64,000 nucleotides of DNA from Bacteroidetes bacterium GWA2_32_17. GTDB lineage: Bacteria; Bacteroidota; Bacteroidia; Bacteroidales; GWA2-32-17. Made by a program: the position numbers and the translations under genes. Within the stretch, counting starts at the first letter, position 1; each line of letters starts with the position of its first letter. Below, one piece after another: positions 1,132 through 38,318 of this stretch. The notes under the pieces are model-generated. The model saw only the letters and a program-made list of their open reading frames with translations, ran no database searches and was not told the origin of the DNA. Location: contig MENF01000150.1 of NCBI GenBank assembly GCA_001769035.1, forward strand, positions 10,848-74,847. Reading direction: 5' to 3'.

Positions 1132-3471
1132 ATGTTGATTTATAAAAATAAAAAAATATTTTTTTTATTGATTTTAATTTTAATTTCTTCGAATATATAT
1201 ACTCAAGATTTAAAAATTATTGACTCGTTAAATAAAGTTATAATCATTTCAAAAGATATTAAAACTAAAATAGATTGTTACAATTTAATTGCTAAAGAAT
1301 ATATAACTAATTCAGCTTTTGACAGTATAAATTTTTATGCTAAAAAAGCTCTTGATTTATCAAAACAAATTAATTATGATAAAGGCATTGGAACAAGTTA
1401 TTCTAATATAGCTGCAATAGAATACGATAAAGGAAATAACGATAAAGCTTTAGAGTTATATTCAATTGGATTAAGATATTTCAGAAAAGCAAATTTTGAT
1501 ATAGGAATAGCAAGAATTTATACTTCATTAGGTAATATTTATATTAATTCGGGTAATTATTCAAAAGCTCTTAATACTTACATCAACTCGCAGAAAATAA
1601 TTGACAAACTATTAGATAAAGATTCTTCTTCAATCAATTTAAACCAAACAAAAGCCAATAATTTAAATAATCTTGGAAATGTATATTTCTATTTGAATAA
1701 CTATGACGAAGTATTAATTTATTATTTTGAAGCTTTTACTCTTTATAAAAAAATAAATGATAAAGCTGATATGGCAAATGCATTAAATAATATAGGGTTA
1801 ATTTATCGTGTTAAGGGAGAAACAGAGAAGTCTATTGATTTTAGAATGAAAGCTTTAGAAATTTTTAAAGAATTAAATAACATTGAGGGATTAGCTTATT
1901 GCAATATGGGATTAGGTAACTTATATTATGAAAGCAATCAACATGACAAATCAATAAATTTTTTCAATCAGGCATTAAAATACTTTAGACAAATGGATTC
2001 CAAAAAAGGAATCATAATGATTTATGTTAATTTCAGCGAAATATTTGCTCAACAAAAGCTTTTCTCAAAATCAATTGCATATTTAGATACAAGTTTAAAA
2101 TTGTCATTTGAAATTGGTAGTAATGATTTAAGAAAAGATATTTATAAAACTTATTCTGAAATTTATAAAAACAAAATGAATTATAAGTTATCATTAGAAT
2201 ATCAAACACTATATATAAACCTAAAAGATAGTATTTTAAATAATGATAATCAAAAGATTATAGCAGACATTCAAACAAAATATGATACTGAAAAGAAAGA
2301 AAAACAAATATTATTATTTAAACAGGAAAAAATTATTCGTGAAGCCGATTTATTAAAAAAATCTAAAGAAGTTCAAAAACAAAAATTTATAATTTATACA
2401 TTTATTTTTGGATTTATTATAATTATAATATTTTCTACATTGTTATATAAACAATTTCATGAAAAGAAAAAAGCATATACTCAATTAGAAATTAAAAATT
2501 CTGAAATTCTGCAAAAAAATGAAGAAATTTCTACCCAACGCGATGAAATAGAAGCCCAACGCGATGAAATTACAACTCAACGCGATTTGGTAACAATTCA
2601 AAAAGAACACATCGAAGAAATCCATAAAGAAGTTACCGACAGCATTAATTATGCAAAACGAATACAGGAAGCTGTTTTGCCTGTGAGCGATTCATCAAGG
2701 TCAATACTTGGCGAACATTTTATTTTATTTAAACCAAAAGATATTGTTTCGGGTGACTTCTACTGGGCAACTCAAATAACAACAATGGGGCATGCTCCAT
2801 TAACAACAAGGGGGCATGCCCACTTGTTAATTGTTGCAGTTGCCGATTGCACTGGTCATGGTGTACCAGGTGCATTTATGAGTATGCTGGGAATTAGTTT
2901 TCTAAATGAAATTGTGCTGAAAGAAGAAGTCCGTAAAGCAAATCAAATATTAAATCATTTAAGAAAAGAAATTATCAATGCACTTCAGCAAAAGGGAATT
3001 AGCGGTGAACAGAAAGACGGAATGGATATTTCACTGCTCGTTGTTAATACCGAAACAAAAGAGTGCCAGTGGGCAGGAGCTAATAATCCGCTTTATATAG
3101 TAAGCAGTATGCAGTCAGCCTTCGGCAATGAAATGCACGAACTGCCAACTGCCACTGCCTCCTGCCAACTATATGAGTTAAAGGGCGACAAAATGCCCAT
3201 AGCCATTTACGAACGTATGGATGACTTTACAAACCACGAATTTACTCTGCAAAAAGGCGATTGTGTTTATTTGTTTAGCGATGGGTATGCCGACCAGTTT
3301 GGTGGACCAAAAAGCAAAAAATTTATGTACAAACAATTAAAAGAATTACTTTTAATAAATTGCCAGAGACCAATGCAAGAGCAAAAAGAAACATTAGATG
3401 TAGCTATCGGAAAATGGAAAGGTGAAAAAGAACAAATAGATGATATTACTGTATTAGGTATAAAAATTTGA
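1132..3471 (+). CDS. TPR-repeat membrane protein with C-terminal SpoIIE/PP2C-type serine phosphatase domain (paralogue 1)
   Basis: N-terminal hydrophobic leader, multiple TPR-like units (NNLGNVY, NNIGLIY, MGLGNLY) and a single TM (IIYTFIFGFIIIIIFSTLLY). A coiled coil TQRDEIEAQRDEITTQRD follows, then GDFYW...ADCTGHGVPGAFMS...DGMD...DGYADQFGG...DDITVLGIKI. Confidence 0.85.
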   Translation: MLIYKNKKIFFLLILILISSNIYTQDLKIIDSLNKVIIISKDIKTKIDCYNLIAKEYITNSAFDSINFYAKKALDLSKQINYDKGIGTSYSNIAAIEYDKGNNDKALELYSIGLRYFRKANFDIGIARIYTSLGNIYINSGNYSKALNTYINSQKIIDKLLDKDSSSINLNQTKANNLNNLGNVYFYLNNYDEVLIYYFEAFTLYKKINDKADMANALNNIGLIYRVKGETEKSIDFRMKALEIFKELNNIEGLAYCNMGLGNLYYESNQHDKSINFFNQALKYFRQMDSKKGIIMIYVNFSEIFAQQKLFSKSIAYLDTSLKLSFEIGSNDLRKDIYKTYSEIYKNKMNYKLSLEYQTLYINLKDSILNNDNQKIIADIQTKYDTEKKEKQILLFKQEKIIREADLLKKSKEVQKQKFIIYTFIFGFIIIIIFSTLLYKQFHEKKKAYTQLEIKNSEILQKNEEISTQRDEIEAQRDEITTQRDLVTIQKEHIEEIHKEVTDSINYAKRIQEAVLPVSDSSRSILGEHFILFKPKDIVSGDFYWATQITTMGHAPLTTRGHAHLLIVAVADCTGHGVPGAFMSMLGISFLNEIVLKEEVRKANQILNHLRKEIINALQQKGISGEQKDGMDISLLVVNTETKECQWAGANNPLYIVSSMQSAFGNEMHELPTATASCQLYELKGDKMPIAIYERMDDFTNHEFTLQKGDCVYLFSDGYADQFGGPKSKKFMYKQLKELLLINCQRPMQEQKETLDVAIGKWKGEKEQIDDITVLGIKI
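2779..2826 (+). repeat. In-frame 24-nt tandem duplication inside the phosphatase domain (TTMGHAPL / TTRGHAHL)
   Basis: aacaacaatggggcatgctccatt and aacaacaagggggcatgcccactt match at 20/24. Paralogue 2 carries a single unit at 5172-5205. Confidence 0.8.
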
Positions 3472-3486
3472 TTCTAATTAAGGCAG

Positions 3487-5862
3487 ATGCAAAAACTTAT
3501 ACTTACAATTTATTTTAGCTTATTATTCATAATTACTAATTCGTATTGCTTTTCGCAGAATACTGAAAAAAGTAGTAAGCAAAGTCGAACTATAGATTCA
3601 TTACTTAATATCCTTAAAACTACAAAAGAAGATACAATTAAAGTAAGAACTTTTAATAAACTTTTTTTAGCCTATGAATTTGAAGATAGTAAAAAGGCTA
3701 AAGGGTTTGTAGATATGGCACTAATCTTATCTAAAAAGATTAATTATAAAAATGGTCTGGCTGATTCTTATATTTATTTAGGTTATTACTTTGAAGATAT
3801 TTGTAATTATCCTGAAGCAATTGAGAATTATTCAGCTTCTTTGAAAATATGCGAAGCAATGGGAGATAAATTTGGTATTGCTATTTCATATAATAATATT
3901 GGTAATATGTATTCTAATCAAGGTAAATACCCTGAAGCATTAAAAAATTATTTTGCTAGTTTAAAGATAAATGAAGAATTAAAAGATCAAGAAGGAATAT
4001 CAAATTGTTATAATAATATTGGAATTATTTACAGAAAACAAAAAAATTATTCTGAGGCTTTAAAAAATTATCTTGCTTGTTTAAAAATAAAAAAAGAAAT
4101 GAGCGACAAGAAAGGCATTGCTAGTTTATATAATAATATTGGATTAATTTATTTTTATCAAAATAAATATTCTGAGGCATTAAACAATTATTATATTTCA
4201 TTAAGAATGTCAGAAGAATTAGAAGATGATAATCGTATTGGCAATGCATATAACAATATTGGAGGTGTATTTTATGAACAGAAAAAATATAATGATGCAT
4301 TAACAAATTACTTTGCTTCCTTAAAAATAGGAGAAAATATTCATGATAAAGTAAGCATTTCAAGCTCCTTGGTTAATATTGGTGATGTTTATACAACCCT
4401 AAAGAAATATAACGAAGCAAAAGATTACCTGATTAAAGCAAAAGAATTATCAGCAGAAATAGGATATATAGAAAATTTGAGAATTACTTATTATTGTTTA
4501 TCTACTCTTGATAGTTCTAAAGCAGATTATAAAGGAGCGTACGAGAATCATAAATTATATATATTATATCGTGATAGTTTAGATAATGAAGAAACCAGAA
4601 AAAAAACTATTCAAACTCAAATGACATATGAATTTGAGAAAAAAGAAGCTGTCGCTTTTGCTGAACATAAAAAAGAGTTAGAAAACCAAAAAGCCCTGGC
4701 TAAAGAAAAAAGCAGAAAACAGAACATTGTTATATTGTTTGTTGTTTCGGGTCTGTTGTTGGTATTAATTTTTGCAGGATATATTTTCCGTTCATTAAGA
4801 ATTACCAAAAAACAGAAGAAAACTATTGAGGAACAGAAGGTCGAAGTAGATATGAAAAACCTGCAACTTAATCAGCAAAACGAAGAAATAAGAACCCAAC
4901 GCGATGAAATAGAAGCCCAGCGAGATGAAATTACAACTCAACGCGATTTGGTAACAATTCAAAAAGAACATATCGAAGAAATTCATAAGGAGGTTACCGA
5001 CAGTATTAATTATGCAAAACGAATACAGGAAGCTGTTTTACCTGACCTCTCCCTAACCCTCTCCAAAGGAGAGGGGAAAAGCCCTTCCCTTTGGGGAGGG
5101 TTGGATGGGGCTTTTATACTTTTCAAACCAAAAGATATTGTGTCGGGCGATTTTTACTGGACAACTCAAATAACAACAATGGGGCATGCCCCCTTGTTAA
5201 TTGTTGCAGTTGCCGACTGTACCGGACACGGTGTTCCGGGTGCCTTTATGAGTATGCTTGGAATTAGTTTTCTAAATGAGATTGTACGAAAACAAGAAGT
5301 AACACAAGCTAACCATGTATTAAATGAAATTAGAAAAGAAGTAATTAACGCTTTACAACAAAAAGGTGTTAGTGGTGAACAAAAAGATGGAATGGACATT
5401 TCGTTGCTCGTTGTTAATACTGAAACAAATGAATGTCAGTGGGCTGGAGCTAATAATCCGCTTTATATAGTAAGCAGTAGCCAGTCAGCGGTAAGCAGTA
5501 TGCAGTCAGCCTTCGGCAATGAAATGCACGAACTGCAAACTGCCACTGCCTTCTGCCAACTATATGAGTTAAAGGGCGACAAAATGCCCATAGCCATTTA
5601 CGAACGTATGGATGACTTTACAAACCATGAATTTAAAATCTCAAAAGACGATTGTCTCTATCTCTTTAGCGATGGCTTTGCCGACCAGTTTGGTGGACCC
5701 AAAGGCAAAAAATTTATGTATAAACAATTTAAGGAAATTTTGCTCACAAACTCTCAAAAACCAATGCAAGAGCAGAAAGAAATTTTAGAAAAAGCTATAA
5801 ATGAATGGATTGGTGTTGGTGAACAAATAGATGATATTACTGTATTAGGCATTAAAATATAA
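3487..5862 (+). CDS. TPR-repeat membrane protein with C-terminal SpoIIE/PP2C-type serine phosphatase domain (paralogue 2)
   Basis: Same architecture as paralogue 1: about 8 TPR units with NNIG..Y, a TM IVILFVVSGLLLVLIFAGYIF, the QRDEI coiled coil, ADCTGHGVPGAFMS, DGFADQFGG and DDITVLGIKI. It starts 15 nt after paralogue 1. Confidence 0.85.
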   Translation: MQKLILTIYFSLLFIITNSYCFSQNTEKSSKQSRTIDSLLNILKTTKEDTIKVRTFNKLFLAYEFEDSKKAKGFVDMALILSKKINYKNGLADSYIYLGYYFEDICNYPEAIENYSASLKICEAMGDKFGIAISYNNIGNMYSNQGKYPEALKNYFASLKINEELKDQEGISNCYNNIGIIYRKQKNYSEALKNYLACLKIKKEMSDKKGIASLYNNIGLIYFYQNKYSEALNNYYISLRMSEELEDDNRIGNAYNNIGGVFYEQKKYNDALTNYFASLKIGENIHDKVSISSSLVNIGDVYTTLKKYNEAKDYLIKAKELSAEIGYIENLRITYYCLSTLDSSKADYKGAYENHKLYILYRDSLDNEETRKKTIQTQMTYEFEKKEAVAFAEHKKELENQKALAKEKSRKQNIVILFVVSGLLLVLIFAGYIFRSLRITKKQKKTIEEQKVEVDMKNLQLNQQNEEIRTQRDEIEAQRDEITTQRDLVTIQKEHIEEIHKEVTDSINYAKRIQEAVLPDLSLTLSKGEGKSPSLWGGLDGAFILFKPKDIVSGDFYWTTQITTMGHAPLLIVAVADCTGHGVPGAFMSMLGISFLNEIVRKQEVTQANHVLNEIRKEVINALQQKGVSGEQKDGMDISLLVVNTETNECQWAGANNPLYIVSSSQSAVSSMQSAFGNEMHELQTATAFCQLYELKGDKMPIAIYERMDDFTNHEFKISKDDCLYLFSDGFADQFGGPKGKKFMYKQFKEILLTNSQKPMQEQKEILEKAINEWIGVGEQIDDITVLGIKI
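5045..5112 (+). repeat. GC-rich double-hairpin element lying in frame inside paralogue 2
   Basis: CCCTCTCC-aaa-GGAGAGGG (5057-5075, perfect 8-bp stem) and CCCTTCCC-ttt-GGGGAGGG (5082-5100, one mismatch). It encodes DLSLTLSKGEGKSPSLWGGLDGA, which is absent from paralogues 1 and 3. Confidence 0.8.
5470..5511 (+). repeat. In-frame 21-nt tandem duplication (gtaagcagtagccagtcagcg / gtaagcagtatgcagtcagcc)
   Basis: 18/21 identity. Paralogue 1 has one copy at about 3100-3120. Confidence 0.8.
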
Positions 5863-5871
5863 CTCATTAAA

Positions 5872-6735
5872 TTATGGAATTATATACTCATAATTATATC
5901 GGTCGAAGAGTTTTAGAATCGAAATTGGGTCATCAGTTTGCAAAATGTCAATTTTCTTTTTTATTGCTATTACGTTAGAATAATAATTGTTAGGAGTATA
6001 TGACATAATGTATAATCCTTTTTTGTGGGCGCTATCTGCATCAATTTCGAAATTTTCCATTTGTGTGCAAATTCCAAAAAACGAATTATTTATACAAGTG
6101 TCAATGTTTGCTTGGCTTACAACACCAGATAAAAAAAGTTTGTTTGTAAATCCTAACTGTCTGGCTTTTCTTAAATATTGTGCATTGCCTTCAATAAAAA
6201 CATTATCGCTCACATTGTATTTATCACAAATTCTTTTTATTGCTCTTAAAAGTTGATTTTGATACTCTTCGGGGTCTGCTACTAAATAGTCAATTTTACT
6301 GTCGAACGAAAAATATAAATTTGCAAGATTGTGTATATTGTTAAAAACATCATCAACTGAGCTAATAAAAATATTATTCTCTAAAGCATAATATTTGCAT
6401 TGTTTTATTTCTGCCCATGTAGATTCGTAAATTCTTCCATTGCAGGTAGTTGTTGAATTAAGTTCACCATCGTGAAAAAAAACTAAAATGCTATCTTTTG
6501 TTATTTGAACATCAACTTCGCAACCATCGGCACCAATTCCAATAGCTGGCACAATTGATTCATAAGTATTGCCTGGTTTTTTATAATACGAGCCCATACC
6601 TCTATGTCCAAGTATCATTATTTTGCTTCCAAAATAAGTATCGTCGGAGTTGTTTCTTTTTTCGCAACTAACAATAAATAATATTGAGAACATTGTTATG
6701 AAAAAAGCAAATGTTTTTTTAATATTAGAATGCAT
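5872..6735 (-). CDS. Glycerophosphodiester phosphodiesterase family lipoprotein
   Basis: Lipobox-like FIVSCEK. GDPD signature ILGHRGMG...GNTYESI...GADGCEVDVQITKDSILVFFHDGELNSTT. Confidence 0.8.
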   Translation of the reverse strand: MHSNIKKTFAFFITMFSILFIVSCEKRNNSDDTYFGSKIMILGHRGMGSYYKKPGNTYESIVPAIGIGADGCEVDVQITKDSILVFFHDGELNSTTTCNGRIYESTWAEIKQCKYYALENNIFISSVDDVFNNIHNLANLYFSFDSKIDYLVADPEEYQNQLLRAIKRICDKYNVSDNVFIEGNAQYLRKARQLGFTNKLFLSGVVSQANIDTCINNSFFGICTQMENFEIDADSAHKKGLYIMSYTPNNYYSNVIAIKKKIDILQTDDPISILKLFDRYNYEYIIP

Positions 6736-22188: not shown

Positions 22189-23040
22189 TTAAAACCCATA
22201 TTCCTTATTAGTTTCACTAAAATCGTTTTCAGAAAATACGGGATTAATTTGAACTTCGCTAAACTGATATTGCTCAAACAATCCTTTATCATCATATATC
22301 TCCATATATACAGGTAAATATGTTATTTTATTAATTACCAGAATTAATTTTTTTGAATAATCTGATGGAATGTTTAAAATTGTACCAATTGTTATTTTAT
22401 CGGTATATTCTTTAAATGCTGGATTTCTTTCTATAATATGGTAGTCGCAAATATTTAATTTGCTTGCAAGTGAATTTACTGTATAATTTCCCTGAGCTTT
22501 ATATTTTATAATTTGAAACGATGGGTTGTTTAATTCAATTTTATAACATTGTATGTTGTTATAGTTTATTTCACCTTTATAAGTTATAAGTTTTGATAAG
22601 TCATCTTTATTTTTTTCAAAAAGATCGCTTAATATTTTTATAAAGTAATCGAAACCTGCATCGTAAATGCTATGGTGCTGACCATCCCGTAACGATTTAC
22701 TCATTGGGTCTAATACTACATTTATCCATGGAAAACTATTCGGATTAACAAGTGATTTCTTGCTGTATTTCTCATTTATCAGCACTTCTGCACCATAATT
22801 AGGTTTAAGTTGTTTATAATAAATTCTTATAGGTGTACTTTGTTTTTTGAAATATGCTTCAATAAGTTTATATTCTGAACCAAATCTTTCTTTTGATAAT
22901 ATTTTAAAAGTAACAGAGTTTACTTTTTTTGCATCCTCAAACATTTTATTCGAAATGTCAATTGCATTTTGAGAAAAACTCACAGAAATATAAAAAACTA
23001 CAAATAACAGAACAGATACTATTTTTTTAATTACTTGCAT
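22189..23040 (-). CDS. Secreted hypothetical protein with a LysM-like segment
   Basis: Signal peptide VLLFVVFYISVSFSQN. YTVNSLASKLNICDYHIIERNPAFKEYTDKITIGTILNIP resembles LysM. Overlaps the upstream gene by 10 nt. Confidence 0.4.
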   Translation of the reverse strand: MQVIKKIVSVLLFVVFYISVSFSQNAIDISNKMFEDAKKVNSVTFKILSKERFGSEYKLIEAYFKKQSTPIRIYYKQLKPNYGAEVLINEKYSKKSLVNPNSFPWINVVLDPMSKSLRDGQHHSIYDAGFDYFIKILSDLFEKNKDDLSKLITYKGEINYNNIQCYKIELNNPSFQIIKYKAQGNYTVNSLASKLNICDYHIIERNPAFKEYTDKITIGTILNIPSDYSKKLILVINKITYLPVYMEIYDDKGLFEQYQFSEVQINPVFSENDFSETNKEYGF

Positions 23041-23690
23041 TTTTCAATCATCTCTTTAAATTCTTTATTTGATATAAATTTTCTAAAAGCAATAGAATTA
23101 TGTTTAAAATTTTCAGCAACTGATTCATTCCAAAAAATTATTGTTGCCAAACCATTTGTTCCAAATTTAAAATAAATAAGTTTAGATAGATTAAAACATC
23201 TGTTTTTCTGTAAAATACTATTTTCAAAAAATTTTAATTTTATTAATGTGTCCGATGTTATATCAATGTAATTTATTAGAGTTTTAATTGTAGGCTTCGA
23301 AAAATTAATTTCATTAATATCTGGATTGTCTTCGACGTATTTAACTGTATATTCGTCATCTACAAGCAATGCTATATCATTTGGTAAAAGCACATAATTA
23401 TCGTTAGTTTCTGCAATTGTAAAGCCTGTTATAACAGAATCAGAATATTTAAAATTAAAAGCCACATTATCTATTTCAAATTGGTCGTGAACACCTGTCA
23501 AACTAACAAAAGTGATTTTTGCGGTGGTTTCTTTTCCATAATTAGAAAGCATGTAATTTCTGTACCATTCGTTGCCTTTAAACAATAATACAATTATAAA
23601 GATTGGACTTAAAAATAAAAGTTTATGCCATAATTTTAATTCAACCTTTTTTTTAATAGAAAGCTTATTATTAAATTTTTGCTGGGGCAT
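23031..23690 (-). CDS. Hypothetical membrane-anchored protein
   Basis: A single N-terminal TM (LLFLSPIFIIVLLF) followed by a beta-rich domain. No family assigned. Confidence 0.4.
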   Translation of the reverse strand: MPQQKFNNKLSIKKKVELKLWHKLLFLSPIFIIVLLFKGNEWYRNYMLSNYGKETTAKITFVSLTGVHDQFEIDNVAFNFKYSDSVITGFTIAETNDNYVLLPNDIALLVDDEYTVKYVEDNPDINEINFSKPTIKTLINYIDITSDTLIKLKFFENSILQKNRCFNLSKLIYFKFGTNGLATIIFWNESVAENFKHNSIAFRKFISNKEFKEMIEKCK

Positions 23691-24083
23691 TTATTTTTAA
23701 TTATTCTTTTCAGTTTAAATTATTATATTTCATCTACGAGGAAATAACATTTATAACAATTAGTTGTGTTACAACGACATATCGCTTGTGGCGATATGCT
23801 TGTTGAGCATTCATTATTGTATAAAAAAGTCATAAATTTTTAAAATCCTCGTAATTGTTACATAAATACTGCTATACTTTGAACGGGTTAAATTATTACA
23901 TTTGAGTTTAAGGTATAAAGGTGTAGGGTATAACCCACTCTTCCTTATACCTCTATGCCATTTTGTCCCGCTTGTGCGGGATGAAATGTTAAAATTTGTC
24001 CCGTTTTCAGTATATTTAGTGTCTGTCTATAATGTCATACAATTTGATTTTCAAAATGATTGATATTACAGACAGATTCTATT

Positions 24084-24213
24084 TAGTGTTTGTCCATAAT
24101 GTCCGATTTCTACGTTATTCTCATTTTTAAAATCAGTCATTTACTACAGTAAACTCCTGATATTTAAAAATTTCGAATGCCTTGAACTCGAACATTATGA
24201 ATCAGACACTGAC
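24084..24213. mobile_element. MITE-like palindromic element, copy 1
   Basis: About 130 bp. It aligns over its whole length with the reverse complement of 38191-38318. The terminal arms tagtgtttgtccataatgtccga... and ...gaacattatgaatcagacactgac are imperfect inverted repeats. Confidence 0.75.
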
Positions 24214-24275
24214 TTTACAGACAGACACTATTTAGTAGTATTAATAAATTTTTACTGGGAAACAGTGATTTTAAA

Positions 24276-24782
24276 TTAAAAAACTTTTCGAATATTATGT
24301 GATTTTACAATTTCCTTATTATAAAACAAACTAAGGTCGGTGCAGATTGTCATTATACAAATTAACTTGCCGCTATCATTAAATACAGGCGAAGCCGAAA
24401 GTTGCACATGTATTTCATCATTATTTCGTTTTATTAAAATACTGTTATATAACCCTGCAATTCCTTTTTTTCTTAAATAAGTGTTCATCTGGTAATTAGA
24501 AAACTCGACCCGGTTTGTAAACTGTCTTAAATTTTTTGAAATAATTTCTTCGGGTTTATAATCAAGAAGTTTACAAAAAGCAGGATTTGCATAAAGAACT
24601 TTTTCGCTGTCGTCGGTTAAGGTAATGGGACTGAGGCTATTACTGGCAAATCGGGTATAAACTTCAAATATTGCTCTTTTTTCGTAACTAGGCAACGAAA
24701 CATAAAATCGTAATTTTTCTATTTCGTTTTTTAATTTTTTATTTTCTGTTTCAAGTTCTTTGATGTTGAGTAATTTGTTCAT
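24276..24782 (-). CDS. Small PAS-domain protein with N-terminal coiled coil
   Basis: LKNEIEKLRF coiled coil, then PITLTDDSEKVLYANPAFCKLLDYKPEEIISKNLRQF...VQLSASPVFNDSGKLICIMTICTDLS, a typical PAS fold. It starts 68 nt downstream of the WD40 gene on the same strand. Confidence 0.7.
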   Translation of the reverse strand: MNKLLNIKELETENKKLKNEIEKLRFYVSLPSYEKRAIFEVYTRFASNSLSPITLTDDSEKVLYANPAFCKLLDYKPEEIISKNLRQFTNRVEFSNYQMNTYLRKKGIAGLYNSILIKRNNDEIHVQLSASPVFNDSGKLICIMTICTDLSLFYNKEIVKSHNIRKVF

Positions 24783-24850: not shown

Positions 24851-26902
24851 TTAATTAATTGAATTGTGCAAATAAAATGGGAAATACCTTCCTTTATATT
24901 GATAATCAACATTATACAATTTTTTTAAAAATATATTAATTTCTTCAAAATCTATTACATTATTATTATCAATATCGTTTAATGGATGCAAACTATTTGT
25001 TAAAATATCGAATATTTGTAAACTCTCCGAAGAATTTATTAAATATTTAACATATTCTTTTTTCCCTGATAAGCTTTTTTCTACAATTTTATTTATATCA
25101 TTATTATTGGCTTGTAAAAAATTTTTTGGAATATTTTGACAAACATGTGACTCGTCAATAATTATTCCTCCAAATGCCGGAGTTTTACTAATAGAGTTAC
25201 ATAATTTTTCTAAACTTATTATTTCTGTTTCAAAGTTTTTTGCATTTGCATTTGGCATAACAAAATATACACTATTTGTGTTATCTTTTACAAAAAAACC
25301 TGAAATAAGGAGCATATACACATCTTGTTTTGAGCAAGTTGAGGCAACGGAGTCGGCAATATTTATTAAATTATCTTCACTAAAATTTGGAGTAACAATG
25401 TTTACAGAATTGTATAATTTACCTTCCTGAGTTTTAATAATTCCTTTAAATTTACTTATATTAGCATATTCAAACTTTGAATTTATTTTTTTATCATAAT
25501 ATTTTTCGGGACTTATTATTAATACTTTAAGCTGTGTTGATTTTAATTGCTCACTTATATCAATATACTTAACGAACAATGGTTTAGAAAACACATAGCT
25601 TGTGTGGTCTAAACTTTCGGCAAAAAGCTGAATTTCATTTTCATTAATATCTAAATAAACATCATAAGTAACTTCTGTAACATTATTTTGAGTAACCTTA
25701 ACCGACATTGGTTTAACAACTTCAATATTGTTCTTTACTAATTTCTTATATTCGGCTTTATTTAAAAAAAATTGAATACTTTTAAAAAGTGGATTATTAA
25801 TTTGAGCTGTAACATTAATATGTCGTGTAAATGAAATTGTAGGATTATTCTCGGGGGATTCCCAAGAAATAATTCTTTCACTTTGTAATTTATTAGTGTT
25901 AGTTGGAATATTAACAATAGGCACAATACTTAAAAACGAGGCATCCCAAACTCTCATTTCTTTGTCAATTGCACCACTAACGATAAATTTACCATCAGGC
26001 GAAAAATTTACAGTTCTTATTCCTAATTTATGACCTTTTAAATCGAAAATAGAAATTCCAAGTTCAATTTTCCAGATTTTTACAATTTTATCGTCGCCAC
26101 CACTAACTAAATATTTTCCATCGGGACTGAATGAAATTGAATAAACAGCTTCGGTATGTCCTTTTAATACTTTAATTAAATTACCATTTTCGGCATTCCA
26201 TATTTTAATCGAATTTTCTAAACCTGCTGTTGCAATATATTTTCCATCAGGGCTATAACTTATTGCTTCAACTGGGAAGTCAGCAACTTTTTTAGAGAAG
26301 ACAAGTCCACCATCAGATATATTCCAAACTTTTAATTCTAAATCGTAACCACTACTGGCAATGCGATTCCCATTAGGACTAAACTTAATAGACCTTATAC
26401 ATTGAGTATGACCTTTAAAATTTCTAAGATTTACACCGGTGGGTGCATACCAAATTTTTATAACATCGTCCCACCCTGCACTTGCAATAAACTGACCGTC
26501 ATTATTATAACTTACACTTCTTGCTGCCTGCAAATGACCATACATTTTCCTTATAAGTATTCCTTTATCAACATCCCAAATTTTTAGATTTTTATCCCAG
26601 CATCCGCTAATTATATTTTTCCCGTCGGGACTGTAATTAATACAAATCTCGCCTTCACCTTTATCATCTATAACTTTTGTCAACTCACCTGTTTGGGTAT
26701 CGTAAATTTTTATAGTTTTATCGGCAGTAAGGCAAGCAATGTTTTTAGAATCAGGCGAAAATACTGTTGATATTATTGCTTTTTCCTGATTTTTTATAAA
26801 TTTTAATGTGATTTGAGTATATGAAAATAACGGACTGCATATCAATATAATACAAAACATTAACATTAGGTCTAATATGATTTTAACTTTAAACATTAAC
26901 AA
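24851..26902 (-). CDS. WD40-repeat protein with Ig-like, degenerate caspase-like (C14) and EF-hand-like segments
   Basis: Hydrophobic leader and seven WD40 units (SPDG..I.SG..D..IKIW pattern, aa ~40-320). A beta-rich segment spans aa ~345-445. aa ~457-590 follow the caspase layout (LKVLIISPEKY..., DVYMLLISGFFV, IIIDESHV). The loop DIDNNNVIDFEE matches an EF-hand. Confidence 0.7.
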   Translation of the reverse strand: MLMFKVKIILDLMLMFCIILICSPLFSYTQITLKFIKNQEKAIISTVFSPDSKNIACLTADKTIKIYDTQTGELTKVIDDKGEGEICINYSPDGKNIISGCWDKNLKIWDVDKGILIRKMYGHLQAARSVSYNNDGQFIASAGWDDVIKIWYAPTGVNLRNFKGHTQCIRSIKFSPNGNRIASSGYDLELKVWNISDGGLVFSKKVADFPVEAISYSPDGKYIATAGLENSIKIWNAENGNLIKVLKGHTEAVYSISFSPDGKYLVSGGDDKIVKIWKIELGISIFDLKGHKLGIRTVNFSPDGKFIVSGAIDKEMRVWDASFLSIVPIVNIPTNTNKLQSERIISWESPENNPTISFTRHINVTAQINNPLFKSIQFFLNKAEYKKLVKNNIEVVKPMSVKVTQNNVTEVTYDVYLDINENEIQLFAESLDHTSYVFSKPLFVKYIDISEQLKSTQLKVLIISPEKYYDKKINSKFEYANISKFKGIIKTQEGKLYNSVNIVTPNFSEDNLINIADSVASTCSKQDVYMLLISGFFVKDNTNSVYFVMPNANAKNFETEIISLEKLCNSISKTPAFGGIIIDESHVCQNIPKNFLQANNNDINKIVEKSLSGKKEYVKYLINSSESLQIFDILTNSLHPLNDIDNNNVIDFEEINIFLKKLYNVDYQYKGRYFPFYLHNSIN

Positions 26903-27167: not shown

Positions 27168-29282
27168 TTGAAATATTTTAAATTAATTATTATATTATTT
27201 TTATTTCTTAATTGCTTTGATACCGATGCACAGCAAATTAGACTTGATTCTTTATTAAAAATTATTAAAACAGAAAAAAACGATTCTGTAAAAGTAAATT
27301 GTTTGTTATCAATTGCTGATTATTATTCAAACGAAACACCCGATAAAGCTATTTATTATGCTAATAAAGCTAAAAACACAGCTATCTATTTAAAAAATCG
27401 TATTCTATATGCACGTTGTTTAATGGAAATTGGTTGGTACTATTATCAATTAGGAAACTATGCTCAAACCCTAAAAAATTATTTTGAAGCTTTAAAAGTT
27501 TATAAACCAAGCGAATTAAAATATACTTCAGCAGTTCTAACTAATATTGGAGACGTTTTTTTAGAGCAAAAAGATTATGAGAAAGCAAAAGAATATTATT
27601 TAAAAGCTCTTAAAATTGACGAAGAAACGCTAAATAAAAATGGGATAGCTGTAATAAATGGTAACATAGGTATAGTATATGAAGAACAAAAAGATTACGA
27701 AAATGCATTAGAATACTTTTACAAATCTTTAACTTTAAACAAAGAGTTATTAAATGAAGCATTGGAAAGTAAAAATTCTCATGAAATTAATGAAAACAAG
27801 AAAGAAATAGCGATTAAATTGGGAAATATTGGAAATTTATATGCAAGTAAAATCGAGAACGATAAATTAACTGTCAACGAAAAAAACGAACTATTAAACA
27901 AAGCATTAGATTATCTTTTGGAAGGTTTAAAAATTGATTATGAGTTAAACAGAAAAAACGGAATTGCTACAAAACTTGGCAATATTGGTATATTATACAA
28001 ATATACAATGAATTATAAACTTGCCGAAAATTATTTACAAAAAGCTCTTTTAGTTTCTGATAGCATTAAAGCTATTAAGTTAATGATTGAATGGCATAAA
28101 AATTTAAGTCAGATATATGAAAAAACAAATCAAACTGAAAAATCATATAAACATTATAAAAAACATATTGAATTAAGGGATAGTATTTATAATTCGGATA
28201 ATACCAAAAACAGTTCACAAGTAGAATTAAGTTATGAATTCGATAAAAAAATGGCATTGAAAAAAGCCGAAAAAGAAAAAAAAGATGCGATTGCTAAAGC
28301 CGAGAAAAGAAAGCAACAAATAGTTATTTGGGCGGTTGGAATCGGACTTATATTAGTGCTAATTTTTACAACCTTTATACTACGTTCTCTTAAGTTAACA
28401 AAAAAACAAAAAAAAATAATTGAAGAGCAAAAACAAATAGTAGAAGAAAAGCAAAATGAAATAATTGACAGTCTAAATTATGCTAAACACTTACAAAATG
28501 CAATTTTACCTACTGCAATTAAGTGGCAAAAACATTTACCAAATAGTTTTATTTTATACAAACCAAAAGATATTGTTTCAGGTGATTTTTACTGGCTTAC
28601 TCAAATAACAACAATGGAACCCCCATTGTTAATTTTTGCTGTTGCCGATTGTACCGGACATGGAGTTCCAGGTGCAATGGTTAGCGTTGTATGCTGTAAT
28701 GCACTTAACAGAGTTGTAAAGGAATTTAATATTACTGAACCTGACAAAATATTAGACAAAACAAAAGAGCTTGTTGTTGAGCATTTTACAAAGGGTAGTG
28801 AAGACGTAAAAGATGGAATGGACATATCGCTTTGTTCATTATATTACGAAACTGATAAAATTATTCTTAAATGGGCTGGAGCAAATAATCCATTATGGGT
28901 TATTTCTTCTGTCATTCTGAACGATAGTGAAGAATCTAACTCGAAAATAGATGCTTCGACTCATAACGATAACTATATGCTAACTGAATTTAAACCCGAC
29001 AAGCATCCTGTTGGAAAAACCGATAACAACGTGCCATTTACAACCCATAATATTGAACTTCAAAAAAATGATTGTATTTATATCTTTAGCGATGGTTATC
29101 AGGATCAGTTCGGTGGAGAACAAGGCAAGAAATTTAAAACTTCGCAAATGAAAGAACTTTTTTTATCGGTACAAAACAAAACTATGAACGAACAGAAAAA
29201 GATTATTTCATATAAATTTGATAACTGGAAAGAAAATTTAGAACAAGTTGATGATATTTGTATAATTGGGGTTAAGGTTTAA
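27168..29282 (+). CDS. TPR-repeat membrane protein with C-terminal SpoIIE/PP2C-type serine phosphatase domain (paralogue 3)
   Basis: TTG start, leader, TPR units, TM IVIWAVGIGLILVLIFTTFIL, GDFYW...ADCTGHGVPGAMVS...DGMD...DGYQDQFGG...DDICIIGVKV. Confidence 0.85.
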   Translation: MKYFKLIIILFLFLNCFDTDAQQIRLDSLLKIIKTEKNDSVKVNCLLSIADYYSNETPDKAIYYANKAKNTAIYLKNRILYARCLMEIGWYYYQLGNYAQTLKNYFEALKVYKPSELKYTSAVLTNIGDVFLEQKDYEKAKEYYLKALKIDEETLNKNGIAVINGNIGIVYEEQKDYENALEYFYKSLTLNKELLNEALESKNSHEINENKKEIAIKLGNIGNLYASKIENDKLTVNEKNELLNKALDYLLEGLKIDYELNRKNGIATKLGNIGILYKYTMNYKLAENYLQKALLVSDSIKAIKLMIEWHKNLSQIYEKTNQTEKSYKHYKKHIELRDSIYNSDNTKNSSQVELSYEFDKKMALKKAEKEKKDAIAKAEKRKQQIVIWAVGIGLILVLIFTTFILRSLKLTKKQKKIIEEQKQIVEEKQNEIIDSLNYAKHLQNAILPTAIKWQKHLPNSFILYKPKDIVSGDFYWLTQITTMEPPLLIFAVADCTGHGVPGAMVSVVCCNALNRVVKEFNITEPDKILDKTKELVVEHFTKGSEDVKDGMDISLCSLYYETDKIILKWAGANNPLWVISSVILNDSEESNSKIDASTHNDNYMLTEFKPDKHPVGKTDNNVPFTTHNIELQKNDCIYIFSDGYQDQFGGEQGKKFKTSQMKELFLSVQNKTMNEQKKIISYKFDNWKENLEQVDDICIIGVKV
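28911..28975 (+). repeat. Copy of the gtcattctgaacg...agatgyttcgact dispersed element, in frame inside paralogue 3
   Basis: gtcattctgaacgatagtgaagaatcta matches 34842-34870 (gtcattctgaacgattagtgaagaatcta) apart from a 1-nt indel. tagatgcttcgact matches tagatgtttcgact. It is codon-aligned and encodes VILNDSEESNSKIDASTHNDNY. Confidence 0.75.
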
Positions 29283-36794: not shown

Positions 36795-38162
36795 TTACTG
36801 TCCGCAATTAACTTTACATCTGTTGCAACGCGAAAGCTCACCACGTAAACGTTTTTCAACTAAATTATTAATTTCATTACGCAGTGGTTCTAACAAAATT
36901 TTATTTATAACCTCATCGGCAAATGCCTGCATTAACAATTGGCACGATTCTTTTTTCGAAATTCCCCGGGAACGTAAATAAAACATAGCGTCTTCGTCTA
37001 ATTGACCGGTAGCAGAGCCATGACTACACTTAACATCATCGGCATAAATTTCGAGCTGTGGTTTTGAACGAACCTTTGCATCATTTGTTAAAAGTAAATT
37101 TTTATTCGATTGAAATGCAAGAGTTTTCTGAGCTTTTTTATCAACTAAAATTTTGCCCGAAAAAATACCTGTTGAAGAGTTATCTACAATTCCTTTGTAA
37201 AGTTGAAAACTTTCACATTCGGGCGATAAATGGTGAACGTGAACATTGTTATCGAAATGCTGATTTTTATCGGCTAACCACAATGCATAAGATTTGTTGA
37301 TTGCATGCGGCTCATTTAATTCAACATACAAATTGTTACGAACAGTACCCCCATTTAAAGTGATATTTACAGAATTTACAAAACTATTTTCCTTTTGTGA
37401 AATAAAAGTATTTGTAATTTGAACAGAGTGGTCGTGTGCATTTTGTTGACGATAAATTTCGAGTTTCGAGTTTTTATTTGCTATAACTTCAAAAGTACTG
37501 TTTAATAAAAAAGACTGAGGGTTTAAACTATGGTCACAAATAACAATATTCGCAGAACTATTTTCTTCAGCAATAATCAGATTATAAGGTTGAACCATTA
37601 ACTCTTCGGTTGCTACAATTAAATTAATTAATTGTATTGGTTCATTTATTATAATATTCTTTGGTAAATAAACGAAAAGTCCGTCTTGAGCAAAAGCCAT
37701 ATTTAAAGATGACAAAGAGTTTTTTTGTTTAGTTAGATTTTTTCCATAATATTTTTTTACTATTTCAGGATATTGTTTCGAAGCTTCAATTAAACTCCCT
37801 ATTATTGCACCATTATTGTACTTTGTTAATAATTTTTCTTTTTCATAAAACCATCCATTAACTAATACCAGATAATTATCTAATTCGGGAACATCACATT
37901 TAAAGACTTCGTTTACATCTATTGTTAATTTTTGTTTTGAAAACTGACGTTTATATGCCCCCAAAAAAGCTGCTTCAATATTAGTATATTTATAATTCTC
38001 ATCTTTTTTAGATGGAAGACCAGATAAATCAAATTCTTTAAATGAAGTTTGCCTGATATTATTTATAAAATCAGGAGTCTGCTTAAAAATTTCTTTGTAA
38101 TTATTGTTATAATCTTCAACCAGAACGTTTTTACCGGGAGATGTATTTGTTTCGTTATTCAT
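36795..38162 (-). CDS. sufD: Fe-S cluster assembly protein SufD
   Basis: SufD-like beta-helix region (SHGSATGQLDEDAMFYLRSRGISKKESCQLLMQAF), downstream of sufC. I use the ATG at 38162. The 20 extra N-terminal codons in the ORF track (to 38222) are encoded by a MITE-like repeat. Confidence 0.85.
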   Translation of the reverse strand: MNNETNTSPGKNVLVEDYNNNYKEIFKQTPDFINNIRQTSFKEFDLSGLPSKKDENYKYTNIEAAFLGAYKRQFSKQKLTIDVNEVFKCDVPELDNYLVLVNGWFYEKEKLLTKYNNGAIIGSLIEASKQYPEIVKKYYGKNLTKQKNSLSSLNMAFAQDGLFVYLPKNIIINEPIQLINLIVATEELMVQPYNLIIAEENSSANIVICDHSLNPQSFLLNSTFEVIANKNSKLEIYRQQNAHDHSVQITNTFISQKENSFVNSVNITLNGGTVRNNLYVELNEPHAINKSYALWLADKNQHFDNNVHVHHLSPECESFQLYKGIVDNSSTGIFSGKILVDKKAQKTLAFQSNKNLLLTNDAKVRSKPQLEIYADDVKCSHGSATGQLDEDAMFYLRSRGISKKESCQLLMQAFADEVINKILLEPLRNEINNLVEKRLRGELSRCNRCKVNCGQ

Positions 38163-38190
38163 ATTTAAATAATTAGTATCTATAAATAAA

Positions 38191-38318
38191 GTCAGTGTTT
38201 GATTCAGAATGTCCGAGTTCAAGGCTTTCGAAGTATTAAAATCAGAAGTTTACTAATGTAAATGCCTGATTTTTAATACGAGAATAACGTAGAATTCGGA
38301 CATTATGGACAAACACTA
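38191..38318. mobile_element. MITE-like palindromic element, copy 2, filling the sufC-sufD spacer
   Basis: Its reverse complement reads tagtgtttgtccataatgtccgaattctacgttattctcg...gaactcggacattctgaatcaaacactgac, which matches 24084-24213. Confidence 0.75.

Follow-up and report, generated by a model that had tools for sequence, protein, structure and literature searches.

A caspase-fold domain that has lost its catalytic residues and kept an EF-hand-type loop, in a predicted exported WD40 protein of Bacteroidia

Bacterial caspase homologues are combined with WD40 repeats more often than with any other domain (PMC3501461), and prokaryotic homologues with a substituted catalytic dyad, the pseudo-orthocaspases, form a recognised class (PMC6426788). 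These bacterial pseudo-enzymes were catalogued only in 2019 and come almost entirely from Cyanobacteria and Alphaproteobacteria; the described members are mainly from these two groups, and 10 of 1078 Bacteroidetes sequences were pseudo-variants (PMC6426788). The YS and YN pseudo-orthocaspases described so far carry Tyr in place of the His and retain both acidic aspartates of the S1 pocket, and the catalogue itself was gathered with a hidden Markov model (HMM) derived from PF00656, at E<1e-4 (PMC6426788). Here we consider a gene in a 64,000-nucleotide stretch of the uncultured Bacteroidetes bacterium GWA2_32_17 (contig MENF01000150.1, positions 10,848 to 74,847; hereafter the window), whose product contains a genuine caspase-fold domain, at amino acids (aa) ~457-680, that has lost its catalytic residues and kept a conserved EF-hand-type loop. 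The gene and its parts are as follows.

24851..26902, reverse strand: whole gene, 683 aa, encoding signal peptide, WD40 propeller, Ig-like sandwich and pseudo-caspase (C14-like) domain (open reading frame (ORF) list and translation)
26816..26902, reverse strand: predicted N-terminal signal peptide, aa 1 to ~29, containing the sole hydrophobic segment of the protein (aa 8-26)
25928..26794, reverse strand: seven-bladed WD40 beta-propeller, aa ~37-325 (Pfam WD40, PF00400, E=1.9e-65, 7 stretches)
25565..25870, reverse strand: predicted Ig-like beta-sandwich, aa ~345-446 (all-beta in the AlphaFold2 (AF2) model at a predicted local distance difference test score (pLDDT) of about 90; Foldseek)
24863..25534, reverse strand: pseudo-caspase domain (Peptidase_C14-like, caspase/hemoglobinase fold), aa ~457-680 (phmmer, HMM, hhalign, AF2, Foldseek and substitution ratios)
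25487..25501, reverse strand: Y-x-D-K-K motif peculiar to the family, aa 468-472, in the loop that follows beta1 (conserved at 80-90% among family members and not among canonical domains)
25295..25297, reverse strand: Phe536 (TTT) in the catalytic His column, directly after beta3 (528-534) (jackhmmer and hhalign alignments)
25148..25150, reverse strand: Ser585 (TCA) in the catalytic Cys column, two residues after beta4 (577-583) (jackhmmer and hhalign alignments)
24941..24976, reverse strand: 12-residue EF-hand-type loop DIDNNNVIDFEE, aa 643-654, within the caspase fold (PROSITE PS00018)

The caspase homology was established via intermediate sequences, because Pfam and PDB sequence searches are blind to it. 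Neither the whole protein nor aa 326-683 matched Peptidase_C14 in Pfam or NCBIfam, a sub-threshold EF-hand alone being found; the window protein does not pass the PF00656 gathering threshold, and only one of 16 family members matches that model (E=0.018). PDB sequence searches were empty for the C-terminal half of the window protein and for the domain of one canonical relative, and a word-indexed homologue search returned a single orthologue for the single sequence and no match for the family alignment. Exhaustive phmmer against 1.8 billion representatives found 42 proteins, about 20 of which share the size and architecture of the window protein, while about 20 others are larger and aligned only at query positions ~100-290 (E=5e-7 to 7e-4). 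In all ten of the larger proteins that were scanned with Pfam, PF00656 (Peptidase_C14, E=1e-16 to 1e-26) lies exactly over the matched stretch; these ten mostly carry WD40 propellers, and several have an upstream Big_7 Ig domain. A local jackhmmer run aligned aa 440-683 end to end with canonical caspase domains, and hhalign between a family-only and a canonical-only profile gave 99.7% probability (E=4e-26, 222 columns). Within the window, this ORF is the sole match of an HMM built from the canonical domains alone (E=4.7e-22). These intermediates show that the window protein descends from active bacterial WD40 / Ig (Big_7) / Peptidase_C14 'caspase family proteins'; its domain is homologous to family C14 and does not qualify as a member on catalytic grounds.

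The predicted structure agrees. AF2 models of aa 326-683 (pLDDT 90.9, predicted template modelling score (pTM) 0.83) and aa 447-683 (pLDDT 93.6, pTM 0.91) contain the beta-sandwich followed by an alpha/beta domain, in which the single-chain caspase fold appears complete through the last strand. When the domain-only model was searched against the PDB with Foldseek, 53 matches had E<=1e-3, and all 50 of the matches listed are caspase-fold proteins, among them MALT1 (1e-6), procaspase-1, GSU0716, metacaspases, CED-3 and caspases-3/6/7/8, with query TM-scores (TMq) of 0.45-0.56. The initial annotation had proposed a caspase/C14 layout for aa 457-590; the layout holds, and the domain extends well beyond the proposed segment, to about aa 680. 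Its first strand was also read correctly, LKVLIISPEKY lying at aa 458-468 with LKVLIIS as beta1 of the models. The domain is under purifying selection, with ratios of non-synonymous to synonymous substitution (dN/dS) of 0.09, 0.115 and 0.19 in comparisons with the related loci L007, L002 and L008, respectively; the WD40 propeller gives comparable values (0.05-0.125) in the same comparisons.

Both catalytic positions are substituted. Two independent alignments, one from jackhmmer and one from hhalign of the family-only against the canonical-only profile, place Phe536 in the His column and Ser585 in the Cys column, and in the models both residues occupy what would be the canonical dyad locations. 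This upholds the original reading of His as Phe within DVYMLLISGFFV (aa 527-538) and of Cys as Ser within GGIIIDESHV (aa 578-587). The His column contains His in 23 of 24 canonical domains versus 2 of 22 family members (P0010 and P0012), and the Cys column contains Cys in 23 of 24 canonical domains versus Ser in 21 of 23 family members, none of which has Cys. The sample was extended with 19 further orthologues and paralogues taken from 18 genomic and metagenomic loci (L001 to L018), bringing the family to ~40 sequences; here every sequence has F, I, L, M or V in the His column (His in 0/19), and the Cys column is Ser in 16 and Thr in one of 17 orthologues. The two family members that retain the His differ at the second position: P0010 (677 aa) has His and Ser, and P0012 (676 aa, MBI4648941.1, Bacteroidia bacterium) has His and Gly. 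They may be evolutionary intermediates toward full loss of the dyad.

The surroundings of the dyad have eroded as well. The Gly that follows the catalytic His (column 537) is present in 22 of 24 canonical domains versus a hydrophobic residue in the family, and both the Gly of the C-H-S-G motif (column 588) and the canonical Thr of column 560 (23/24) are lost. The first S1-pocket Asp (column 481, the equivalent of TbMCA2 Asp95) occurs in all 24 canonical domains versus 5 of 20 family members, the window protein having Asn; at the second (column 583, the equivalent of Asp211) the window protein has Asp, and the family divides into 13 with Asp and 9 with Asn. The acidic S1 pocket of orthocaspases and metacaspases, as defined previously (PMC6426788), is not a feature of this family. 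Two features are specific to the family, the Y-x-D-K-K motif and K555, the latter likewise 80-90% conserved. An alternative dyad of His586 and Cys588 was considered and rejected: both residues lie in a single loop, His586 is found in 6 of 23 members, and Cys588 is restricted to the nearest orthologues (window, L002, L007 and L008). No other conserved His/Cys pair was found elsewhere in the caspase-like segment, in the family or in the locus orthologues. As judged from these columns, the window protein would be unable to cleave peptide bonds by a Cys-His mechanism.

The window protein falls within the pseudo-orthocaspases sensu Klemencic et al. 2019, that is, prokaryotic p20-like domains with one or both dyad residues substituted. 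It shares with the known examples (YS, YN; SyOC of Synechocystis) the substituted dyad, the retained fold and the presumed lack of proteolysis, and Cys to Ser is the commonest replacement in the known class too (PMC6426788, PMC7889975). Unlike the YS and YN proteins, the window family is hydrophobic at the His position, has an eroded S1 pocket, escapes the HMM with which the catalogue was gathered, and combines a predicted exported WD40-Ig architecture with invariant EF-loop ligands. It thus appears to be pseudo-orthocaspase-like with a different route of degeneration, in which the dyad became hydrophobic/Ser, the S1 pocket was lost and an internal EF-type loop was sharpened. The family is small and restricted to Bacteroidia (about 23 clusters among the 1.8 billion representatives, plus the 18 loci), and its public annotations read 'hypothetical protein' or 'WD40 repeat domain-containing protein'.

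The active bacterial WD40/Big_7/Peptidase_C14 orthocaspases (MCX7725044.1 of Thermodesulfovibrio sp., P0021; P0022-P0043) have the same domain order, with propeller(s), an Ig-like domain and a C-terminal caspase domain. They are homologous in sequence over the whole caspase domain and share KTQ-G-LY and a D before beta3, and some have an EF-like loop at the same position. Unlike the window protein, they keep AGHG, D-T-C-H-S-G and the S1 aspartate of K-D-A, and they score above the Pfam C14 threshold; most are also larger, with two propellers and 920-1440 aa. Four of these canonical relatives (P0024, P0025, P0028 and P0035; 936-1441 aa) have two tandem caspase domains, and in two of them the first is degenerate and the second intact (Cys to Ile in domain 1 of P0028, His to Gln in domain 1 of P0035), which suggests that pairing of active and inactive domains exists within the clade. 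Outside the bacteria, Trypanosoma brucei MCA4 is a natural Cys to Ser pseudopeptidase of caspase-family fold that works without proteolytic activity, much as envisaged for the window domain. Unlike the window protein, it is a eukaryotic, lipid-anchored type I metacaspase without WD40, Ig or EF loop, it keeps the catalytic His, and it is processed by an active paralogue. The best structural matches are MALT1 (PDB 7ak0, 3v4o and others) and Geobacter GSU0716 (PDB 3bij), at E=1e-6 to 2e-5 and TMq about 0.5, with sequence identity of only 8-11%. MALT1 also combines caspase-like and Ig domains and is a scaffold as well as a protease; unlike the window protein it is catalytically active, cytoplasmic and eukaryotic, and its Ig3 follows the caspase domain where the window's sandwich precedes it.

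The second distinguishing feature of the domain is its EF-hand-type loop. DIDNNNVIDFEEI matches PROSITE PS00018 with the canonical ligand pattern, and the match is unique among about 19,800 residues of the window's long ORFs, with a chance expectation, at the amino-acid composition of the window, of 0.0027 per protein of this length and 0.08 over all long ORFs. No column of the pseudo-caspase domain is invariant except ligands 1, 5 and 12 of the loop (D643, N647 and E654); conservation is 91% at N642 and 78% at each of D645, I650 and D651. The full PS00018 pattern stands at the homologous position in 17 of 23 family members versus about 4 of 24 canonical domains, the other canonical domains being degenerate, which argues that the loop is an ancestral element of the caspase clade, kept and sharpened in the pseudo-enzymes. 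In the AF2 model the order is helix 630-641, the loop, a beta-bridge at 649-650 (loop positions 7-8, as in EF-hands), helix 652-662 and the last strand, 664-670; at the level of predicted secondary structure this is a helix-loop-helix. When the family profile was searched against the PDB, only calmodulin-type EF loops were matched (E about 0.004-0.03).

Compared with EF-hand/DxDxDG loops of the calmodulin-like, PS00018 kind, the window loop has D, D, N, D and E as ligands 1, 3, 5, 9 and 12, a hydrophobic position 8, the modelled helix-loop-helix and the weak profile matches to calmodulin sites in common. It differs in being single, unpaired and embedded in an alpha/beta enzyme fold, in having Asn and not Gly at position 6, and in falling below the Pfam threshold. 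On this pattern of ligands, the loop probably binds calcium. A canonical 12-residue EF-hand loop had been recognised here from the outset, and its identity stands; its coordinates had been given as 24944-24979, one codon away from the true 24941-24976, and it is no separate module at the C-terminus of the protein, being internal to the caspase fold and found in some active relatives as well. Nor is the combination of caspase and EF-hand unprecedented in active enzymes, since in the 2019 prokaryotic survey some archaeal orthocaspases are credited with an 'EF-hand motif' and Big_7 as accessory features (PMC6426788).

The ORF starts with TTG, with an ATG at codon 3, in a window of ~29% G+C. The closest relatives of the gene are on contigs of metagenome-assembled genomes of uncultured Bacteroidales/Bacteroidetes; the protein is 97% identical to its counterpart on metagenome contig L007 and 78-79% to that on JAVHRE010000085, and the orthologues in the 18 loci span 97% to 30% identity. 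The seven WD40 blades, correctly called in the initial annotation, are detected as seven stretches by Pfam, and the region also matches many other beta-propeller families. The beta-sandwich-like segment that had been noted after them corresponds to the all-beta aa ~345-446, which in the two-domain model matches Ig-like domains by Foldseek, e.g. KIR and the sulfite-oxidase Ig-like domain, and in which the motifs FLNKxEY, KP and YxxYL are invariant across the family. Pfam finds Big_7 (PF17957) at the equivalent position in the canonical relatives and no Big_7 match in the window protein's sandwich, and hhalign between the two gives a match of 7.6% probability, too weak to establish homology, with a topologically sensible alignment. 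An Ig-like fold is supported by the model and Foldseek.

With respect to export, the earlier suggestion of a secreted or membrane protein agrees with the lone N-terminal hydrophobic segment and with the signal peptides of homologues. The segment ends ..YSQ|I/L in orthologues, distant family members have classic signal peptides, and the homologues' signal peptides are of Bacteroidota type. A signal-peptidase I site is probable before Gln30 (..FSYT|QITLKF), and we infer Sec export with cleavage before this Gln. The periplasm is the most likely location, because the protein has neither a second membrane segment nor an additional domain at its C-terminus. In one locus (L001 972-1252, an ENA contig) the signal-peptide-encoding start (ORF 972-1142, ..FSFAQIPIK..) is out of frame with the gene body, a break that is either a frameshift or an assembly error.

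The neighbouring genes bear on what the protein might work with. Those of principal interest are the following.

24276..24782, reverse strand: small coiled-coil and PAS protein, 168 aa, predicted cytoplasmic, 68 nucleotides (nt) downstream on the same strand (Pfam PAS_9 E=3.8e-16)
27168..29282, forward strand: divergent sensor with TPR, transmembrane (TM) and SpoIIE (PP2C phosphatase) parts, 704 aa (Pfam TPR families and SpoIIE; TM aa 385-403)
23031-23690, reverse strand: membrane-anchored 219-aa protein (hyp219), syntenic downstream, with an N-terminal hydrophobic segment
22189-23040, reverse strand: DUF1571/LolA-like exported protein, syntenic downstream, with an N-terminal hydrophobic segment (DUF1571 E=1e-13)

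The small PAS protein had been placed 68 nt from the WD40 gene; the gap is exactly that, and the gene pair recurs in 14 of the 15 loci with downstream sequence, down to about 40% identity, the exception being L018. No terminator-like site was found in the 68-nt gap, although the scan for sigma-70 promoters and terminators was uninformative in this AT-rich Bacteroidales DNA; neither Rfam nor tRNA scans gave a match in the window. In L018, tandem pseudo-caspase paralogues (1878-3944 and 3954-6008; 30% and 36% identity to the window protein) stand downstream of PTPS and are followed by NusA and a 912-aa ORF, with no PAS gene after them.

On the other side, either a TPR-TM-SpoIIE gene or a His_kinase gene (the latter mostly TPR-TM-HisK) is immediately upstream in 8 loci. 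The TPR-TM-SpoIIE gene is divergently upstream in L007 and L008 as in the window, and its TPR-TM part is homologous (24-26% identity, same topology) to that of the TPR-TM-His_kinase gene directly upstream in L006 and L017; the upstream TPR-HisK genes of L013 and L015 are related, and L014 has a His_kinase gene. TPR-TM-SpoIIE stands between the SH3_3 and pseudo-caspase genes only in the window (27168-29282), L007 (977-3088) and L008 (3-3450, two tandem copies), whereas the SH3_3 gene is the direct divergent neighbour in L001, L003-L005 and L009-L011; the phosphatase gene looks like a lineage-specific insertion or expansion. In the clade at ~40% identity the genes are tightly packed, with small gaps or overlaps, in the order PTPS, TPR-TM-His_kinase (PF06580), WD40 pseudo-caspase, 830-aa 3xPAS, small PAS, Asparaginase_2 and hyp219. 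The ~830-aa three-PAS protein lies between the pseudo-caspase and the small PAS in L006 (7023-9497), L013 (2952-5453), L014 (6010-8517) and L015 (6008-8479), with gene ends that overlap or nearly do so and a C-terminal ~370 aa free of Pfam matches.

Further differences concern the region between PAS and hyp219. An exported Asparaginase_2 (isoaspartyl peptidase-like) is encoded there in L001, L006 and L012-L015; it is missing from the window, L002, L004, L005, L007 and L008, with no detectable remnant, including in the 585-nt gap that follows PAS in the window. This ORF-free gap (23691-24275) compares with about 25-130 nt in orthologous loci. It contains a partly self-complementary element of ~165 nt (approx. 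24084-24247), of which an opposite-strand copy occurs at 38155-38318 (82.5% identity, E=2e-42) and which looks like a palindromic repeat or one resembling a miniature inverted-repeat transposable element.

With moderate confidence, we favour the reading that the window protein is an exported, most likely periplasmic, non-catalytic and probably calcium-binding 'pseudo-orthocaspase' acting as a calcium-stabilised or calcium-switched binding adaptor. It would bind proteins in place of cleaving them, at its WD40 propeller and at the face of the caspase domain that formerly met the substrate. In caspases the last helix and strand form the dimer interface, and calcium bound beside these elements could control self-association or the association with a partner. 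More tentatively, the protein may cooperate in the periplasm with a TPR module, that of the transmembrane PP2C phosphatase encoded next to it or, in other lineages, of a histidine kinase; the TPR sensor might then relay a signal into the cytoplasm, where the conserved PAS protein(s) encoded downstream would be among the recipients. We infer a scaffold or signalling-accessory role; the view taken in the initial annotation, of a scaffold or sensor rather than a protease, would agree with the eroded active site and the signalling-rich neighbourhood.

Several points weigh against this reading. Inactivity, calcium binding and the partner are predictions from sequence, and the periplasmic location is deduced from the hydrophobic segment and the signal peptides of homologues. 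Ser585 is conserved beyond purely structural need, so that residual or altered chemistry may persist. The EF-hand is atypical in being single and unpaired, with one motif in the protein, and it scores 11.8 bits against Pfam EF-hand_1, below the cut-off of 25.4. The PAS proteins have no hydrophobic segment and are therefore predicted to be cytoplasmic, where they could not touch an exported protein directly; any link to PAS would thus need a membrane-spanning partner such as the TPR sensors, and in seven loci (L001, L003-L005 and L009-L011) no TPR sensor is upstream, the SH3_3 gene being the neighbour instead. Lastly, because unrelated housekeeping genes (PTPS, Asparaginase_2) are syntenic too and all loci come from one class, Bacteroidia, the conservation of the neighbourhood may be partly inherited and not functional.

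Among the other explanations, the first is that the protein, like cFLIP or TbMCA4, partners and regulates an active WD40/Big_7/C14 orthocaspase encoded elsewhere in the genome, or acts as its decoy; it would pair with this enzyme via the dimer interface or be processed by it. Its origin from active paralogues of the same architecture speaks for this, as do the tandem active/degenerate domain pairs of P0028 and P0035 and the position of the conserved EF loop, which adjoins the helix and strand that make up the dimer interface in caspases. We nevertheless consider it unlikely: the canonical-only HMM found no other C14-like domain within the 64-kb window or the 18 related loci, and those canonical relatives whose source is named belong to a different phylum (Thermodesulfovibrio).

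A second, rather less probable explanation is a periplasmic scaffold unrelated to signalling, for instance in envelope biogenesis or maintenance together with hyp219 and the DUF1571/LolA-like protein; PAS and TPR would then be inherited synteny and the calcium site structural. The genes for hyp219 (anchored by its TM segment) and the exported DUF1571 protein are indeed syntenic in most loci, the housekeeping genes equally so, and an EF-like loop that is already present in some active relatives may simply stabilise the fold. What inertia alone explains less readily is that the PAS adjacency persists across clades at about 40% identity although other genes have been inserted or lost, and that the same TPR-TM module recurs upstream with two output domains and in two orientations.

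It is doubtful that the domain is still a hydrolase, namely a caspase-fold serine enzyme with Ser585 as a nucleophile activated by K471, K472, K555 or His586. Ser585 is 91% conserved in the family, with Ser or Thr in all 17 orthologues covering the site; Y-x-D-K-K and K555 have predicted positions on the C-terminal edge of the sheet, where the active site is, and P0010 has His together with Ser. Set against this, hydrophobic residues fill the canonical His column in almost every member, the candidate His586 is in only 6 of 23, and the dyad-flanking glycines and both S1-pocket aspartates are degenerate. Cys to Ser variants of caspase-family enzymes, including natural ones such as T. brucei MCA4, are regarded as inactive. 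The same is held of natural Ser variants among bacteria, the cyanobacterial YS pseudo-orthocaspases (PMC6426788). The idea that the caspase-like domain is a functionless, decaying relic or a chance resemblance, for which the failure of the Pfam C14 model and of PDB sequence searches might be adduced, is refuted by the selection (dN/dS 0.09-0.19), the model (pLDDT >90), hhalign (E=4e-26), Foldseek (50/50 listed matches of caspase fold) and conservation over about 40 sequences.

The adaptor reading can also be taken considerably further, as a long shot. Bacteroidia might have turned the caspase fold into a calcium-switched receptor that works outside the cytoplasm. In it, calcium in the loop would control the dimer-interface helix and strand, the old active-site face, remodelled around Ser585 and the family-specific lysines, would bind or even chemically process a non-peptide or acidic ligand, and the signal would pass via the TPR phosphatase or kinase to PAS. 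If true, a dead caspase would underlie a bacterial signalling route that has not been described before.

In practical terms, the analysis brings a better annotation and a testable calcium-binding hypothesis, and no new principle. The family also illustrates that surveys based on profile thresholds under-count pseudo-caspases. Caspase-family pseudo-enzymes have important regulatory roles, in animals (cFLIP) as in parasites (MCA4), and this family of Bacteroidia offers a clean test case for why the caspase fold is kept after catalysis has been lost.

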